A stretch of 64,000 bases of DNA, taken from assembly GCF_902652985.1 (NCBI RefSeq), contig NC_047026.1, forward strand, positions 35,402,001 to 35,466,000. Reading direction: 5' to 3'. Every line of letters begins with the position of its first letter. The stretch's first letter is position 1. The stretch comes from Pecten maximus. Its lineage: Eukaryota. The position numbers were made by a program, and so were the translations under genes. Below are positions 52,443-61,907 of the stretch, one piece after another. Under the pieces are notes generated by a model. The model ran no database searches. It was not told the DNA's origin and was given only the letters and a program-made list of their open reading frames with translations.

Positions 52443-52499
52443 AGAAAAAAAATAAAAAACCAATTTCGGCCTCAGTTTGTTGACCGTATGAGAAAGGCG

Positions 52500-53205
52500 T
52501 TGATATTTGACATGTGTTGACATTTGATGTGTGACATTTGACATGTGTTGACATTTGACATGTGTTGATATTTGACATGTGTTTATATTTGAAATGTGTT
52601 GACATTTGACATGTGTTGATATTTGACATGTGTTGACATTTGACATGAGTTGACATTTGTTGATATTTGACATGTGTTGATATTTGACATGTGTTGACAT
52701 TTGACATGTGTTGACATTTGACATGTGTTGACATTTGATGTGTGACATTTGACATGTGTTGACATTTGACATGTGTTGATATTTGACATGTGTTGACATT
52801 TGATGTGTGACATTTGACATGTGTTGACATTTGACATGAGTTGACATTTGTTGATATTTGACATGTGTTGATATTTGACATGTGTTGATATTTGACATGT
52901 GTTTACATTTGACATGTGTTGACATTTGATGTGTGACATTTGACATGTGTTGACATTTGACATGTGTTGATATTTGACATGTGTTGACATTTGACATGTG
53001 TTGATATTTGACATGTGTTGACATTTGACATGTGTTGATATTTAACATGTGTTTACATTTGACATGTGTTGACATTTGATGTGTGACATTTGACATGTGT
53101 TGACATTTGACGTGCTGATATTTGACATGTGTTGACATTTGACATGTGTTGACATTTGACATGTGTTTATATTTGACATGTGTTGACATTTGACATGTGT
53201 TGACG
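52500..53205. repeat. 17-bp minisatellite (TGACATGTGTTGACATT)n
   Basis: About 40 copies with TGATATT and TGATGTG variants. Confidence 0.96.
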
Positions 53206-54444
53206 AATTTAAACCCACTCGTCGAGATATGTTGTCTTCTCACAAATCTTGTGACGGTTAATATGTTCCACAGGTTATTCTTAAACAACGAGATGAATCA
53301 ATGATAGATCCCCGTTGAAGTATTGGTCAGTAGGACCTATAGTCCGGAATCGCCATTGTGCAGTATTTGCTTCTTAGTCACGATCTCTCCTCCATTTCGT
53401 CACACAAAGTGACAACATGCCAAAGATTACAATGTTTGTTGGACTAATCATGAGAATAAGAGGATAGTAAAACATGGAGATTCAATAAATCAACTTAGAA
53501 AAATGATAATTATGGATTAAAACGTATGCTCTACGTTATATATATAAGATATGTAGGGATACTACAAAACATCGAGGGGTCATACGAAGGGTAAAACAAA
53601 ATATCAAGGGGTCATAAGAAGGGTAAAACAAAACGTCGAGGGGTCGTACGAAGGGTGATAAACCTTGGAGGGGTCGTACGAAGGGTGATAAAAATGGGAG
53701 GTGTCGTACAAAGGGTGAACAAAACATCGAGGGGTCGTACGAAGGATGATAAACCTGGGAGGGGTCGTACAAAGGGTGAACAAAACGTCGAGGGGTCGTA
53801 CAAAGGGTGAACAAAACGTCGAGGGGTCGTACGAAGAGTGAACAAAACGTCGAGGGGTCGTACGAAGGGTGAGCAAAATATCAAGGGGTCGTGCGAATAG
53901 TGAGCAAAACATCGGGGGGTCGTACGAAGAGTGAACAAAACGTCGAGGGGTCGTACGAAGAGTGAACAAAATATCGAGGGGTCGTACGAACGGTAAAACA
54001 AAATATCGAGGGGTCGTACGAACGGTAAAACAAAATATCGAGGGGTCGTACGAAGGGTGAACAAAACATCTAGGTGTCGTACGAAGAGTAAAACAAAACA
54101 TCGAGGGGTCGTACAAAGAGTGAAAAAAACATCGAGGGGTCATACGAAGAGTGAACAAAACATCGAGGGGTCGTTCGAGGGGTGAACAAAATATCGAGGG
54201 GTCGTTCGAAGAGTGAACAAAACATCGAGGGGTCGTACGAAGGGTGAACAAAACGTCGAGGGGTCATACGAAGAGTGAACAAAACATCTAGGGGTCGTTC
54301 GAAGAGTGAACAAAACGTCGAGGGGTCGTACGAAGAGTGAACAAAACGTCGAGGGGTCGTACGAAGAGTGAACAAAACATCGAGGGGTCGTACGAAGAGT
54401 GAACAAAACATCGAGGGGTCGTACGAAGAGTGAACAGGACTTGA

Positions 54445-54456
54445 CAAGATGGCGGC
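54445..54456 (+). promoter_or_regulatory. YY1-like site in the LINE internal promoter
   Basis: CAAGATGGCGGC within the first 20 nt of the element matches the YY1 consensus. Confidence 0.6.
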
Positions 54457-54852
54457 GCCCTATGATGACCGGGTATGGCGAGCTCCGTAGTTTTTGACAT
54501 TTTTTGTGCATTTCCAAGATGAACTCGGATGTGAAGTCCTGAGCGAGGACGGAGGCAAGTCGCTGCAATGTAAGCATCTCGCTGTTTTGCTTATCCGTGA
54601 TATACTTTGTGACTTCTGCAACGTTTACCGTATTGTGAGTTGTGTGTTTATACTATTATTGAATGCATTGTACCATGACCCCGAGTGCTCACCTGTATTG
54701 AAGGTACATGTATATGGACGCACGCACAAAACACGACCGAAAATTCGTCACGCTCCATTGACACTCTACTACTCTGAGGATTTATATCGGCCTCATGTGG
54801 ACTTCTAAAGGAGAATTATTATAGTATTTCTTGCGATAACCGTTTCACAACC

Positions 54853-56115
54853 ATGGGTAAAAGCAAAAAAAGGAAGAAGAAGGATTTAGATGAAGGAGAT
54901 GAAAGCGTGAGCAGTAACAATTCTTCAAGTACTATGAGTAGTATACTGAACGCTGTCAGTGGCGTACTGTACGGCAGCCCTACCAAGCTCACACCCATTC
55001 CCCCATCGTCCACTCCGAAACCGACATTTAGAGCCACGGATAAAGTTGATGAACAGCGCTTCGACGAAACCAACCGTAAACTCGACTTTATTCTCAGTAA
55101 AATAGAGAAGCTAGACAAGCTAGACGTGATTGAGGAACATCTCTCCCATCTATCTACTCGAGTTAGTGAAGTCGAAAGACGGGTGTTGGACGCTGAGCGG
55201 AGATGTGGTGAATTTGAAACCACGGCTAGTTTTGTATCGGGAAAATACGACGAAATCAACGCCAAGTGGGTTAACAACAGTGATTTGACAGCGGCAGTCA
55301 AAAAGCATGAAGCAACCATTACTGAACTTTCAAGACAGTTAGAAACTCTCCGATTAGATCGCGATGACACCAAGCAGACGGTACTAGACCTACAGTGCAG
55401 GTCTATGAAGTACAACCTTGTGTTCACTGGACTAGGTGGAGAATCCCGGATTGAGGACACCTTAGCTCTCATTAGAGACTTCGTGTATATTGAACTCGGC
55501 ATAGAACGCAAAATAGAATTTGGAAATGTCCACCGGTTTGGAAGGTACATGCGTGGTAAGCCCCGGCCGATTGTTGCCAGATTTGTATACCACCAAGATC
55601 TCCAGTTGGTCAAGGGCAGATCATTTCATCTAAAAGGGACCCCGTTTGGCATACACGAGCAGTATCCCGTGGAAATAGAAGAGAGACGAAAGAAGCTGTA
55701 TCCGGTCCTCCGAAGCCACAAGAACGCGGGTCAGACCGTGAAGCTGGTCAGAGACCGACTTTACATAAACGGCATCCAGTATGAGGAAGGTCAGAATGCT
55801 GGCGATAGCTACGCAGCCAACCGCGCCCATCAACACACCGGAAGGACAAGAGAACCAACTTCAGGCCCAGAGGACAGGCAGCCCGTCCCCACCTCTGGTG
55901 GCGGTCAGCAGCGGCCTCCCATTGCTCCGCGGCGGAGAGTTCCGCATGGGACTCCGTCCCGCGCTTCGAACGGACGCGCTTCTAACACCAACACGGCGAG
56001 AACGAGGCCGACCGGTGCTCCCAACCATTACAATCAGCCACCCAACACCAGAGGTTCACAGCGAACTTGGGATTCCAACGCTATTCCGCGTGATTCTCGG
56101 CTGAACGACAGGTAG
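54853..56115 (+). CDS. LINE ORF1 protein (coiled coil, L1-type RRM/CTD, basic disordered tail), 420 aa
   Basis: Heptad-rich segment followed by LQCRSMKYNLVFTGL, VHRFG, KPRPIVARF, IHEQYP.EIEERRKKL, KLVRDRLYING. Confidence 0.9.
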   Translation: MGKSKKRKKKDLDEGDESVSSNNSSSTMSSILNAVSGVLYGSPTKLTPIPPSSTPKPTFRATDKVDEQRFDETNRKLDFILSKIEKLDKLDVIEEHLSHLSTRVSEVERRVLDAERRCGEFETTASFVSGKYDEINAKWVNNSDLTAAVKKHEATITELSRQLETLRLDRDDTKQTVLDLQCRSMKYNLVFTGLGGESRIEDTLALIRDFVYIELGIERKIEFGNVHRFGRYMRGKPRPIVARFVYHQDLQLVKGRSFHLKGTPFGIHEQYPVEIEERRKKLYPVLRSHKNAGQTVKLVRDRLYINGIQYEEGQNAGDSYAANRAHQHTGRTREPTSGPEDRQPVPTSGGGQQRPPIAPRRRVPHGTPSRASNGRASNTNTARTRPTGAPNHYNQPPNTRGSQRTWDSNAIPRDSRLNDR

Positions 56116-59100
56116 GACAGTGAGGAGGGTGATCTGTCAATCCTATCGTGGAACATAGGCAAAGGACTTGTCAACAAGCTCAATGACCCTGACTTTTTAG
56201 AAATTGTTAATAAGCATGACATTATATTTCTCTCAAATGTTGGATCTCCAACACAGATGAAGCAGATTTACCTGGGTATTGTACATACGTTTTCCCAAGA
56301 ACTACTGGTAAAGGAGGCGGTATAGTGATTTTTTATAAAAGTAATTGCGCCAATTATGTTCGGCTTGTTGAAAATATATATGAGTGTATATACTGGGTAG
56401 AAGTTAGTACATGTAATTTATTAGAACCTTTATTTCTATGTTTTTGTTACTTTCCACCGGAAAATAGTGTGTTTTATCATAATCGTGATATCGATATTTT
56501 TCAAAATCTTGAAGATTCTATTATCCGTTATAAAACGAACGGAAACATCTATGTTACCGGTGACCTTAATGCTAGAACAGGAACTAGGGACGATTTTATT
56601 GCAAATGATGGTCTTAACAGGTCAGATATCAATAATGTTTTTAACTATAATAACGATTCAACTACTTCTAAACGTACGAACATGGACAAAAACGTAAACA
56701 CTTATGGAAGAAAATTATTATCCGTATGTAAATCTACCAGCATACGTATTGTAAACGGGCGTCATGCAGATGATAAGCAAGGGAGTTTTACTTTTTATAG
56801 CACAAATGGCACAAGCCTAATTGATTATCTGCTTGTGGACTGTGAATATATGTCACGTGTTCGACATTTTTCTTCCGGCGAGTTTAATACTCTGTCTGAT
56901 CATTCACCATTGTCTTTTACTCTTGAATGTAGTTATTTGAATGAAAATGTAAACCATGATGATAAATCATGTACAGGTAGTACTCTACCAAATGTCCGAT
57001 GGAATGGAGATAATGTTGATAATATATCTAATGGTCTTAACGAAATGGCGGAAGTACTTATGAATACCTGTGGTATGCCTTTTAATACTAAAGAAGATGT
57101 TGATGTATGTATAGCCAACTTTTGTGGCATTGTAAATGATATAGTATTACCTAATTGTGATATTAAAACTTCGAACTATCAATCGAAATGTAGTGCATCA
57201 AATAAGGCGAAAACAAAGACAGAGGACAAACCATGGTTTTCAGAAGAGTGTAAAAGAAAATACGGGGAATATAAAAAGGCCTTATTTGACTATAATATAT
57301 GCAAGTCTGTTTCAAATCACACTATTCTCATAAGAAAAAAGGCTGCGTACAAAAAATTAGAATTTAGATTAAAAAGGCAATATATGCGTCAAGAAGGTAA
57401 TATGGTTGAGTTTCTCAGAAAGTCTAACCCCAAACAATTTTACAAATATTTCTCAAAACGTCGAAATAACGCCTCAAATTCTAATATTAATATGGAGGAA
57501 TTCGTAGAACACTTCAAAAACTTGGGCGGAGACAGTAATTCTATTTTAGACAATATTCCTCTAGATATGTCAAATGAAAACACAGATTTCGCTGTGTTTG
57601 AAGAACTAGATCAACCATTTACTGAAGATGAGGTACATATCGCCATTCGAAATCTAAAAAGAGATCAAAGTTGTAGCGAAGATTGTATCTTTAATGAGTT
57701 ATTTTTAGAATTTGAGGAAATTATGCTTCCGTGTATTACGAAATTATACTCTAGTTTATTTGAATTTGGTTATTTCCCGGAAATTTGGTCACGTGGTTGT
57801 ATAGTACCGATTCATAAAAAGGGGGATGTTAACGACACAGGAAATTATAGAGGCATAACCCTGGTTAGCTGTATGGGGAAACTATTTACATCGGTCCTGA
57901 ATAGAAGACTTTTAAAATGGGATAAAGACAATAACGTTATTTCTGATGCCCAATTTGGTTTTAAAGAGGGTAGTTCAACTGTCGACGCAATATTTGCGCT
58001 CCAATCTCTGGTTAACAAAACATTAAAAAATAAAAAGAGATTGTATTGCTGTTTTGTAGACTACAAAAAAGCATTTGATCTTATTGACAGAAGTAGTCTT
58101 TGGTGTAAACTTGTAAAGCAGGGAGTCCAGGGGAAATTATTAAAGATTATAAAATCTTTGTACGATAATGTAAAATCTTGTGTTAAGTACAATGGTCATA
58201 TTTCAGATTATTTCAATAACCAAATCGGTCTCTTTCAAGGGGAAGTCCTCTCGCCGATTTTATATAGTCTTTTTGTCAATGATTGTGAAATGAATTTTAT
58301 TACTGAAAACAGTCCATCTGTTGAAATAGGTTTGATTACAATATTTTTGCTTATGTACGCGGATGACTCGGTTTTATTAGCAGAATCACCAGGTGATTTG
58401 CAATCTATGTTAAATGCACTGCTCCTGTACAACAACAAATGGAAACTTACACTTAATGTAAATAAAACGAAAATATTGATTTTTAGAAATGGTGGACGGG
58501 TAAGAGAAGATGAAAAATGGTTTTATAATAACATTGAAATTGAAGCTGTAAATGAGTTTAATTATTTGGGTATGCTTTTTAATTTTAACGGCAAATTCAA
58601 CAAAACACAGCAACATGCGGCAGAAAAGGGAAGAAAATCATATTTTTCATTATTAAATAAGATGAAAAATCATAACTTTAATGTTGAAACTTTATGTTCA
58701 GTTTTTGACACATATGTAAGTAGTGTATTAGGGTATGCAAGTGAAATATGGGGTTTTCACAGAGCTGTAGAAGTTGAGAGAGTGCATACACGCTTCTGTA
58801 AATATGTCTTAGGTGTTGCCAAAAATACATGTAATGACCTAGTTTATTTTGAATTAGGTAGACTGCCAATGTATATTGTTAGAAAATTAAAAATATTGAA
58901 ATATTGGATCAAAGTTAAAGATACAGATAATTGTGTGGTGAAAGCATGCTATAAGCAAAGGTTGTTAGATAATGATGAATGGACTGTAAATATCAGATTA
59001 GAATTGGATAAGTTAGGGTTGGGATACCTATGGAACAGTAATTACGAAGGGAAAACAATGTATAAATTGATTGAAAACAAATTCCATGAAATTCACACAC

Positions 59101-59522
59101 ATGAAATGTTGTCAAATATTAGAAACTCTCCGAAAGGTGTTTTGTATCAACATTTGATAGATAATGACGGTCTGCAATTTTATTTAAGAAAACCTATTGA
59201 TAAATTATATAAGAAAGGTATTTCAAGAATACGATTGTCCTCACATCAGCTTAATATAGAAAGTGGAAGATATACGAATATCGCTAGATCAGATAGATTG
59301 TGTACGGTATGTAATAACCGTGATATTGAGGACGAGTTTCATTTTATTCTTAAATGTCCTTTTTATTCAAATCTACGTGCTAAATACCTAAAGCCATACT
59401 ATTTTCGTAAACCTAGTGTATTTAAACTTGTCCAACTACTTAGCGTAAATAATGTCAAGGAGTTGAATAATCTGGGGAAATTTATACATTTTGCATTTAA
59501 GCAACGCTCTGATGCATCATAA
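56116..59522 (+). CDS. LINE ORF2 (endonuclease-reverse transcriptase); 1-bp frameshift near 56235, main open part 56325-59522
   Basis: APE motifs ILSWNI, DIIFLS[E]CW, GGG, YFPP, TGDLNAR, SLIDY, LSDHSP; RT motifs YRGITL, QFGF, FVDYKKAFD, GLFQGEVLSP, YADD, YLG; C-terminal RLCTVC..EDEFHFILKCP. Confidence 0.92.
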
Positions 59523-61907
59523 TTTAGGTAAATTTATTTATGAAAATCTTGAAAAATATTATCTATGTACATCTTAATATCTATAATATTAGGACAATGA
59601 ATAGCCATGTACTGTTTGGTATAATGTATGTGTATTGGTGTACATGGGCGAGGATGCGTGCGCATGCGTACCCGTGAGGATGTGATCATGTGTGAGTAAC
59701 TGTGTAGGTATCCTTGTAAGGGTGCGTTTATATATATTTGTCACTCTCCTGTTAATTGCTGCATCAATTGTGTACTATTATTATCATGTTATATGTCATG
59801 AATCTCATAAGCCGTAAGGCTTACTGAATAAACAAATTGAGAAATTGAAATTGAACAAAACATCGAGGGGTCGTACGAAGAGTGAACAAAACGTCGAGGG
59901 GTCGTACGAAGAGTGAACAAAACGTCGAGGGGTCGTACGAAGAGTGAACAAAACGTCGAGGGGTCATACGAACGGTGAACAAAACATCGAGGGGTCGTTC
60001 GAAGAGTGGACAAAACATCGAGGGGTCGTACGAAGAGTGAACAAAACGTCGAGGGGTCATACGAACGGTGAACAAAACATCGAGGGGTCGTACAAAGAGT
60101 TAACAAAACGTCGAGGGGTCGTTCGAAGAGTGGACAAAACATCGAGGGGTCGTTCGAGGGATGAACAAAACATCGAGGGGTCGTACGAACGGTGAACAAA
60201 ACATCGAGGGGTCGTACGAAGGGTGAACAAAATATCGAGTGACCGTACTTGTACATTGTATCTCACTGCTATAGAACACCATGTATACATTAGAGTGACA
60301 AAATCGCCATTTTATTATTACGTTTGTTTTATGATTCTAGGTTACTTAGTATAACAGATGCAGTAGTTATGACACCTCTAACAAATATTTCCGTCTCTTG
60401 TCAGGTATTTTTCATGTCTGCTATGCTAAACAGTGGTTAAAAGCACAGACGTCTGCTTTTGTTTAGAATTAATAGGAACAAATATTAGCCCCACTCATAC
60501 AATATATTTATATATATATGTTTCTATTAATACTACCAGTAACCGACGCCTGTGGTGAAAGCGCGGTTTCCGTGCTCCATAGAATTCATATATTCTAATA
60601 TCGTTATCCGAGCGGAACCTGACACAGTATCATCGGTAAAAATAGAATGTAGGAACACGAGATTGAATCATGATCACTGAAGCATGACAACACTTTTATC
60701 AATAAAATATCCCTTCAGAGTTAGAGCACATCAACAAAATTCCCCTTTCTTACAAGAATAATTGAATGTGGTTGCCATCCAGAAGATTGCACGATCTACG
60801 AGCGCGAGGTGTGTATCTTCGTTCTCGTTCTCGGTCTTGAATCCTGCATCCTTACAGGAAAAGGTAAGTTCATACTTGAAAACACGTATGGAGGGAAAGC
60901 GTTTGTGTATAATATCAGTGGGGAAACCGGAAATCAGGAGATTTCCTCCATATTTTTCTCGGATATTTCCTCGGTATTTTCAAAATGATTAATATTTACC
61001 TTTTTACTATCAAATAAGACAGTGATGGTGTTTCTTGCTTTATCAATTGTCCAAGTGAATCACATTTATATCTACAACAGATCCAAGGCGTTGTAAAAGA
61101 GAATATCTATAATACCATTGGTCACCTATGTGTTTTGGATATGGATAAGTAGCTCGATATGGCATTTAGATGTTGAATGTTTTGTAGCACGACAATTGAC
61201 ATTCAAATTTTGAATGTTGTGCAGCTCGACATTCGACATCCAACATTTTAATGTATTCACTGGACAATGATGGAACATTTGAATGTGATGCAAAACGACA
61301 TACGACATTTCGTATTTTATGGCTATGGGGGCCATAAATAGCTGATATTTTCGTGCTCTAGTAACATTTCGTTAAATATGACCCACTTATAACATGGAGG
61401 GTTATGAATTTAAGGTCATTCATGTTCAACTTGGTTGTAATCACGTGATCAAGCTTTCGCGGTAGTTTGAATTTGAATCGAAATTTACACGTGCTTTATG
61501 CTCCACTCGGTGTGACGCACGTGATCACACATCATTGATTTAGTTTGGGCCGTGCGATACAGCATTTTCCTGTATATGCATTGCCATTTGTTGAAGCATT
61601 TTTCTGATATCAGATACATGCGATGTAATAGGTTTCTTTTATATCAAAACATTAGTTTTTTAGAGTGGCGGCCATTGCCTAGCCTCTGGTTGGTCGAAAT
61701 TTAGAAATGAAAATATATAAAGGAGACAGGGACACTATTTGAAAGGGAAATACTTGTTCTAAGCTGCTATTAAAAACAACAGCAAAGAACAAAGACGTGC
61801 AAACGAAACCATAACCCTAAATCGAAATCAAAATATAAGCAAGTAATTGGCGCCGTCGTGTTAAACGATCAATAATGCTTGTATTGAATGGTTTTATTTA
61901 AGAAACA

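Follow-up and report, generated by a model that had tools for sequence, protein, structure and literature searches.

A candidate UAG read-through junction and a predicted long-range RNA helix in RTE-X retrotransposons of bivalves

How a long interspersed nuclear element (LINE) makes its second protein is a long-standing question that has been solved for few elements, and a copy in the scallop Pecten maximus raises it again. The window analyzed here is a stretch of 64,000 nucleotides (nt) (GCF_902652985.1, NC_047026.1:35,402,001-35,466,000, forward strand; coordinates are those of the window). It contains a full-length LINE of the RTE-X clade, whose first open reading frame (ORF1) ends in TAG and is followed in the same frame by DSEEGDLSILSWNIGKGL...DIIFLS, the first strand of the apurinic/apyrimidinic (APE) endonuclease of ORF2, with neither an ATG nor a spacer. 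An earlier note on this DNA had described this junction and proposed that ORF2 is made by read-through of a stop lying in a hairpin. Its description of the junction is borne out by the reading frame and by all eight close full-length copies (L001-L008), in which the junction is identical. From the family comparison below, programmed UAG read-through appears highly probable in the family of the window element and in its relatives.

Our survey of the scallop's own genome is a sample, consisting of four protein searches in each of which 150 of 370-751 candidates were scored; its 198 records correspond to 160 distinct junction regions. The first in-frame stop upstream of the endonuclease is TAG in 148 of these, TAA in seven and TGA in five. 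The 12 non-TAG regions and four regions with a chance TAG (L035, L076, L302, L338) look 5'-truncated or decayed, and the TAG-G motif is retained in three of them. Sense codons occupy the stop position in two regions (CAG and AAG), both in decayed copies. A DNA search returned 18 loci: eight close full-length copies with TAG, two truncated copies, seven diverged copies with TAG and one without. Among the copies with an intact junction we chose 43 family representatives, some of them closely related, with endonuclease identity reaching down to about 25%. All 43 possess a single TAG in frame, separated from the first endonuclease motif by 5-28 codons, and TAG also stands immediately in front of intact ORF2 frames of 1129-1196 codons. 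The junction is genuine, and it is a clade-wide trait, not a private mutation.

The same layout is found outside the scallop genome. A metagenome scan gave four loci, and two contigs from another host carry ORF1-TAG-G in frame. One further locus (L179, contig NSIT01000254.1) is essentially our own-genome family L088, and this contig is likely host DNA in a microbial assembly. We inspected by eye the first ~400 nt of 48 of the 84 RTE-X entries in a bivalve library (PMC10294476). The junction was visible in eight of these 48, and five show an in-frame TAG ahead of the endonuclease start: three from razor clam, one from mussel and one identical to our family L055. Of the remaining junctions, one has an ORF1 ending in TAG-GAC with the rest cut, one starts at AG, and the last is considered with the contrary evidence below. 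The ORF1-TAG-ORF2 layout may thus be old in bivalves, as these entries suggest. The junction pattern also matched eight viral contigs, none of them relatives, and gave 58 matches in prokaryote genomes, none encoding the endonuclease.

ORF2's own stops are TAA in 17, TAG in five and TGA in three of 25 families, and TAA in seven and TGA in three of ten further families; because they are mostly TAA, the sole use of TAG at the junction points to selection. The TAG is followed by G at +1 (positions counted from the first base after the stop) in 38 of the 43 representatives. ORF2 has no shared start overlapping or near the ORF1 stop, as termination-reinitiation would use: an in-frame ATG between the TAG and the first endonuclease motif occurs in three of the 43, eight have neither ATG nor CTG, GTG, TTG, ACG or ATH there, and no start position is common to all. 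Taken together, the exclusive UAG, the constant frame, the G at +1 and the lack of a conserved start strongly support read-through, and to this extent the proposal of the earlier note stands. The findings that it had named as fatal to its idea, namely a sense codon in most copies or an ATG or splice supplying the ORF2 start, did not emerge from the family survey.

As at type III read-through sites, these families have a lone in-frame UAG at the junction, mostly with G behind it; the type III layout continues with a spacer of about 8 nt and then a structure (PMC13517186). The hexamers listed in the available text of that source (UAGGGV, UAGGUA, UAGGAU) fit 20 of the 43 families and do not include the UAGGAC of the window element; the exact motif of Moloney murine leukemia virus (MoMLV) given there, UAG GGR NGU CAG, is present in four of the 43.

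What, then, could stimulate read-through? The earlier note had placed the stop in a hairpin (TAGGA..TCCTA and GACAG..CTGTC, 56113-56145). The short complementary arms exist, but four folded windows are all weaker than shuffled sequences (z +0.55 to +0.98). We rejected the local hairpin as stimulator because it folds no better than shuffled sequence. No local fold is shared among the 25 families compared (z +1.3 to -3.8, most within 2 of zero), nor did we find an unusually stable one, with a program that ignores pseudoknots such as the H-type structure within ~60 nt of gammaretroviral stimulators.

A different signal is found further along. G is present at +9 in 22 and at +10 in 24 of 25 families, and since +9 is the third position of ten different codons, its conservation suggests a signal at the RNA level. 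A scan for partners of +4..+24 along each element pointed to the 3' untranslated region (UTR). In the window element the proximal pairing element, AGGAGGGTGAT, lies behind a 7-nt spacer and is predicted to pair with GTCACTCTCCT in the 3' UTR; pair probabilities are 0.76-0.99 when junction and UTR are co-folded. In the sister copies L052 and L080 this site is the best downstream partner (-18.2 kcal/mol). Partner sites lie 3.2-3.9 kb downstream of +7 to +21 and are family-specific.

Cognate duplexes between +4..+24 and the 3' UTR have a mean energy of -18.8 kcal/mol in 25 families, versus -14.9 +/- 0.5 kcal/mol when UTRs are permuted (0 of 100,000 permutations as good), and the excess persists when UTR length is fixed at 450 nt. 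Ranked among the UTRs, the cognate one comes first in six of the 25 families and within the top three in 13. When 28 query windows from -89 to +141 were compared in 24 families, leaving out L164 (3' end missing; included in the 25-family permutation), the excess was confined to +1..+24 (z -3.6, -6.7, -7.5 and -5.1); the other 24 windows lie within 2.2 of zero, the next largest z being -2.2, and the stop-containing windows -8..+6 and -5..+9 display no cognate pairing (z +0.8 and +0.5). The best downstream site falls in the UTR, which makes up 9% of the length, in 16 of these 24 families, as against four and one of 24 for control windows. At +8 the energy-optimal duplexes contain three different Watson-Crick pairs (A-U, U-A and C-G), and the pair type also varies at +13, +15 and +16. 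The predicted complementarity is thus strongest at +7..+21, about where type III signals have their structure, some 8 nt after the stop.

In a distant subclade of ten families, the same post-stop segment pairs with the codons of an ETGRY motif lying ~290 nt upstream of the end of ORF2 (z -4.5, 0 of 20,000). This pairing is specific on both sides, with 11 shifted targets within 2.3 of zero; L331 was left out of the test, its GRY anchor not being found. Fifteen distant families were examined afterwards, and in three of them (L308, L311 and L318) the pairing falls immediately upstream of AATAAA. The partner in L318 is the terminal hairpin itself, whose own folding would therefore compete with the pairing.

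Several observations weigh against read-through stimulated by such a helix. The helix of the window family taken alone is not above shuffles (five of 30 as good), and sites upstream in ORF1 pair with its proximal element equally well or better. The best site is outside the UTR in eight of 24 close families, the partner is weak or absent in L159, L123, L125 and L172, and the distant families L306, L312, L324, L303 and L304 have a weak partner or none. The ETGRY target was chosen after the top hits had been seen in four of the ten families. Because of the relatedness among families, the permutation counts should not be read as exact probabilities. In many families the linker contains a near-cognate start. 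One outside consensus, a library entry, has its junction off by one base. In a broken outside copy (L181:2067-2075) TGG replaces TAG and ORF1 and ORF2 are fused, which may reflect decay, a fusion of natural origin or an editing event that became fixed. Finally, in the contigs of four runs guessed to be RNA, coverage is mostly of the 3' half and the stop is not spanned by any listed piece, a lack of cover that is not itself evidence.

On balance, we consider it likely that read-through to an ORF1-ORF2 fusion is stimulated by the helix between +7..+21 and a site near the RNA 3' end. Most ribosomes would terminate at the UAG and release ORF1p, and a few percent may insert an amino acid there when the helix occupies the mRNA entry channel, producing a minor ORF1-ORF2 fusion protein. 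Read-through would set a high ORF1p:ORF2p ratio, and the endonuclease-reverse transcriptase (RT) would stay tethered to an ORF1p subunit via a flexible tail, no protease being encoded. RT synthesis would depend on an RNA that still bears its own 3' end. Somewhat more cautiously, we favor a generalization to the RTE-X clade, at least across bivalves: RT may be produced by UAG read-through switched on by a stop-3' end helix spanning 3.2-3.9 kb. The product would be an ORF1p-ORF2p fusion, and RT synthesis would be limited to RNAs that retain their own intact 3' end.

The alternative that survives best, although we judge it unlikely, accepts read-through and gives the helix another job: the UAG-G context or a host factor would drive read-through, and the helix would, for instance, help to assemble the ribonucleoprotein (RNP), let the 3' end be recognized for target-primed reverse transcription or shield the RNA from nonsense-mediated decay. 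It would fit the several families that have a perfect UAG junction and no good partner, and the closeness of the partner to the 3' end that RT must bind. Against it stands the observation that pairing begins at about +7 to +9 regardless of the length or residues of the linker, and nowhere else between -89 and +141. The MoMLV stimulator starts at the same position, and type III contexts generally require a downstream structure, according to the available text of PMC13517186.

A second and rather improbable alternative is that ribosomes terminate at the UAG and reinitiate at a near-cognate codon or without a start codon, held in place by the helix, so that ORF2p would be a separate protein. This is the known LINE route, and SART1 uses downstream structure in it (PMC5972666, available text); moreover, codon 7 of the window family is an in-frame CTG, and an ATG is present in three of the 43 families. 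Reinitiation needs neither a single stop type nor a single frame, yet all 43 families retain both, although their linkers vary from 5 to 28 codons, and the eight families lacking any near-cognate start, like the absence of a shared start position, argue in the same direction. We consider reinitiation less likely than read-through.

Adenosine-to-inosine editing turns UAG into a Trp codon at the amber/W site of hepatitis delta, and UAG is a preferred triplet of ADAR. A similar conversion here would account for the strict use of UAG, and the TGG of L181 stands at the right position. Edited RNAs would return to the genome, yet TGG occurs in none of the 160 own-genome junction regions. The stop-containing windows show no cognate pairing that would place an edited A in a duplex; neither hallmark of the amber/W site, an edited A in a duplex or TGG in progeny copies, was thus seen in the own genome. 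Removal of the stop, or provision of an ORF2 start, by splicing can likewise be imagined from the CAG-GTAGG of the window family, which resembles a donor, and from TAG-G, which resembles an acceptor. However, G precedes TAG in just ten of 43 families, so that the GT is not kept; the pyrimidine content upstream is 0.24-0.68 in the 43 representatives, with no tract, and the four contig sets contain no splice-like joint. Spliced copies should also have built up in the genome. Either process should be traceable in daughter copies, and because no such trace was observed we regard editing as very unlikely and splicing as more improbable still. The idea of a private nonsense mutation in a single-ORF element, with no support in the own genome and the fused L181 in its favor, is refuted by the TAG found in 43 of 43 families and by its position directly before intact frames.

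The features of the element are collected in Table 1. It is inserted within flanking arrays of a 31-bp minisatellite (53564-54436 and 59852-60239), and an empty site was seen, one contig joining 54433 directly to 59855. The end of its tail agrees with TGAACA of the 31-bp repeat. The insertion does not look site-specific, because sister copies occupy unrelated flanks. A 17-bp tandem array with long stop-free frames on its minus strand is present at 52499-53204.

Table 1. Features of the RTE-X element in the window
Feature	Position	Strand	Basis or remark
Full-length RTE-X clade LINE	54437..59855	+	Ends read from sequence
ORF1, 420 aa	54853..56115	+	ATG at 54853, stop TAG at 56113-56115
UAG-G: ORF1 stop, candidate read-through codon	56113..56116	+	TAG in 43/43, +1 G in 38/43 family representatives
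ORF2 (APE endonuclease, RT, Cys/His-rich C-terminus), without own start codon	56116..59522	+	Frameshifted near 56235
Proximal pairing element	56123..56133 (+8 to +18 after stop)	+	G conservation, predicted pairing
Distal pairing element, 3' UTR	59740..59750	+	11 predicted pairs with 56123-56133
3' end: small hairpin, AATAAA (59827-59832), short GAAATT-type tail repeats	59808..59855	+	Sequence reading

The ORF1 protein comprises a coiled coil, an RRM, a C-terminal domain of the L1 ORF1p type and a Pro/Arg-rich tail that is likely disordered. By sequence it has no match in Pfam or PDB beyond coiled-coil noise. The top structural match of an AlphaFold model of residues 67-316 (mean confidence, pLDDT, 88.8) is the human LINE-1 ORF1p trimer (E 3e-08), and this predicted fold would agree with the separate coiled-coil ORF1, of esterase or RRM type, expected of RTE-X. 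Of 31 cluster representatives, 18 show similarity to the window ORF1 in the frame of the stop, four show it in a shifted frame and nine show none.

Near 56235 the window copy lacks one base that its sisters have, and its ORF2 changes frame there, which the earlier note had missed; in the sisters L052 and L080 the frame stays open for 1135 codons immediately behind the TAG. Pfam detects Exo_endo_phos (residues 10-263) and RVT_1 (566-820), both above cut-offs, and no protease domain in an intact sister ORF2, which thus combines APE endonuclease and RT as in RTE-X. The clade label itself is taken from a curated, tree-classified RTE-X entry of the bivalve library that matches the L055 junction letter for letter (PMC10294476, inspected in part); the available text also notes some Proto2/RTE-X discordance. 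L055 and the window family share a supported subtree in a quick ORF2 tree built without RTEX or Proto2 reference proteins.

Most families have 3' ends like that of the window element, with hairpin, AATAAA and short tail repeats. A 26-nt UTR segment present in L052 and in a contig of run X3 is missing from the window copy at 59608; this segment would be a second, weaker partner for the post-stop bases. Six distant-subclade families (L340, L303, L304, L309, L310, L325) have a common UTR motif, GTGTCTC...AGCCA...TGGCTGG, then GTGACAC before AATAAA, which has the appearance of a conserved stem that closes off the 3' end. The 3' UTRs of the unrelated families L304 and L079 contain a similar long inverted repeat with the core GGTAGGGG.A...CAACCACTCTCG, possibly a captured small element.

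If true, the proposed mechanism would mean that a whole clade makes ORF2 the way MLV and tombusviruses make their polymerases, with a recoding signal of plant-virus type in a retrotransposon. It would tie RT synthesis to full-length RNA, and the predicted fusion would alter the picture of how RT joins the RNP. The signal maps to two stretches of ~11 nt, and the families would provide dozens of naturally varying examples of such a long-range signal for read-through in animal cells. Any RTE-X ORF2 annotated from an internal methionine would lack the beginning of the endonuclease. Our literature search found no report of read-through for RTE-X and no long-range stimulator in any LINE, although the in-frame TAG itself may have been remarked before; the available text of PMC11203168, PMC10294476, PMC9115989, PMC5753468 and PMC3905857 gives no ORF2 expression mechanism for RTE-X.

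How does this junction compare with known systems? In its APE-RT ORF2, short tandem 3' tail and L1-type ORF1, the element resembles the bivalve RTE-X (RTEX) LINEs. Within the literature searched, the idea of read-through has one LINE precedent, in Paramecium, a host with a variant genetic code. For the Group 3 non-LTR (long terminal repeat) retrotransposons of this ciliate, whose ORF1 and ORF2 also share one frame, read-through was proposed from consensus sequences; they belong to a separate clade, the proposal is inferential, and the available text describes no stimulator (PMC5405496). Termination-reinitiation was proposed for mammalian L1 and shown for SART1 of the silkworm (PMC5972666). Both have, like the present element, a bicistronic LINE RNA and low ORF2 output, and SART1 needs a structure downstream of the junction, in the available text of that source. 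In L1 the two ORFs are separated by a 63-nt spacer and ORF2 has an AUG, and in SART1 stop and start overlap, whereas the junction described here has neither spacer nor shared start. The gag-pol junction of MoMLV is closer, with a single in-frame UAG between a structural ORF and RT, a purine-rich spacer and a stimulatory structure that begins at G9 (PMC13517186, available text). The differences are that RTE-X has no shared local fold (pseudoknots not modelled), no protease and no LTR, and that its ORF1p is L1-like and not Gag. The nearest likeness to the predicted helix is the tombusvirus Carnation Italian ringspot virus, whose polymerase is a read-through product and whose UAG-G is combined with pairing of the segment just 3' of the stop with a site more than 3.5 kb away, according to the same available text (PMC13517186). 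Here, the candidate is an animal retrotransposon known from its sequence, no conserved local stem-loop was found among the families folded, and the predicted distal site differs between subclades, being placed either in the 3' UTR or within late codons of ORF2.

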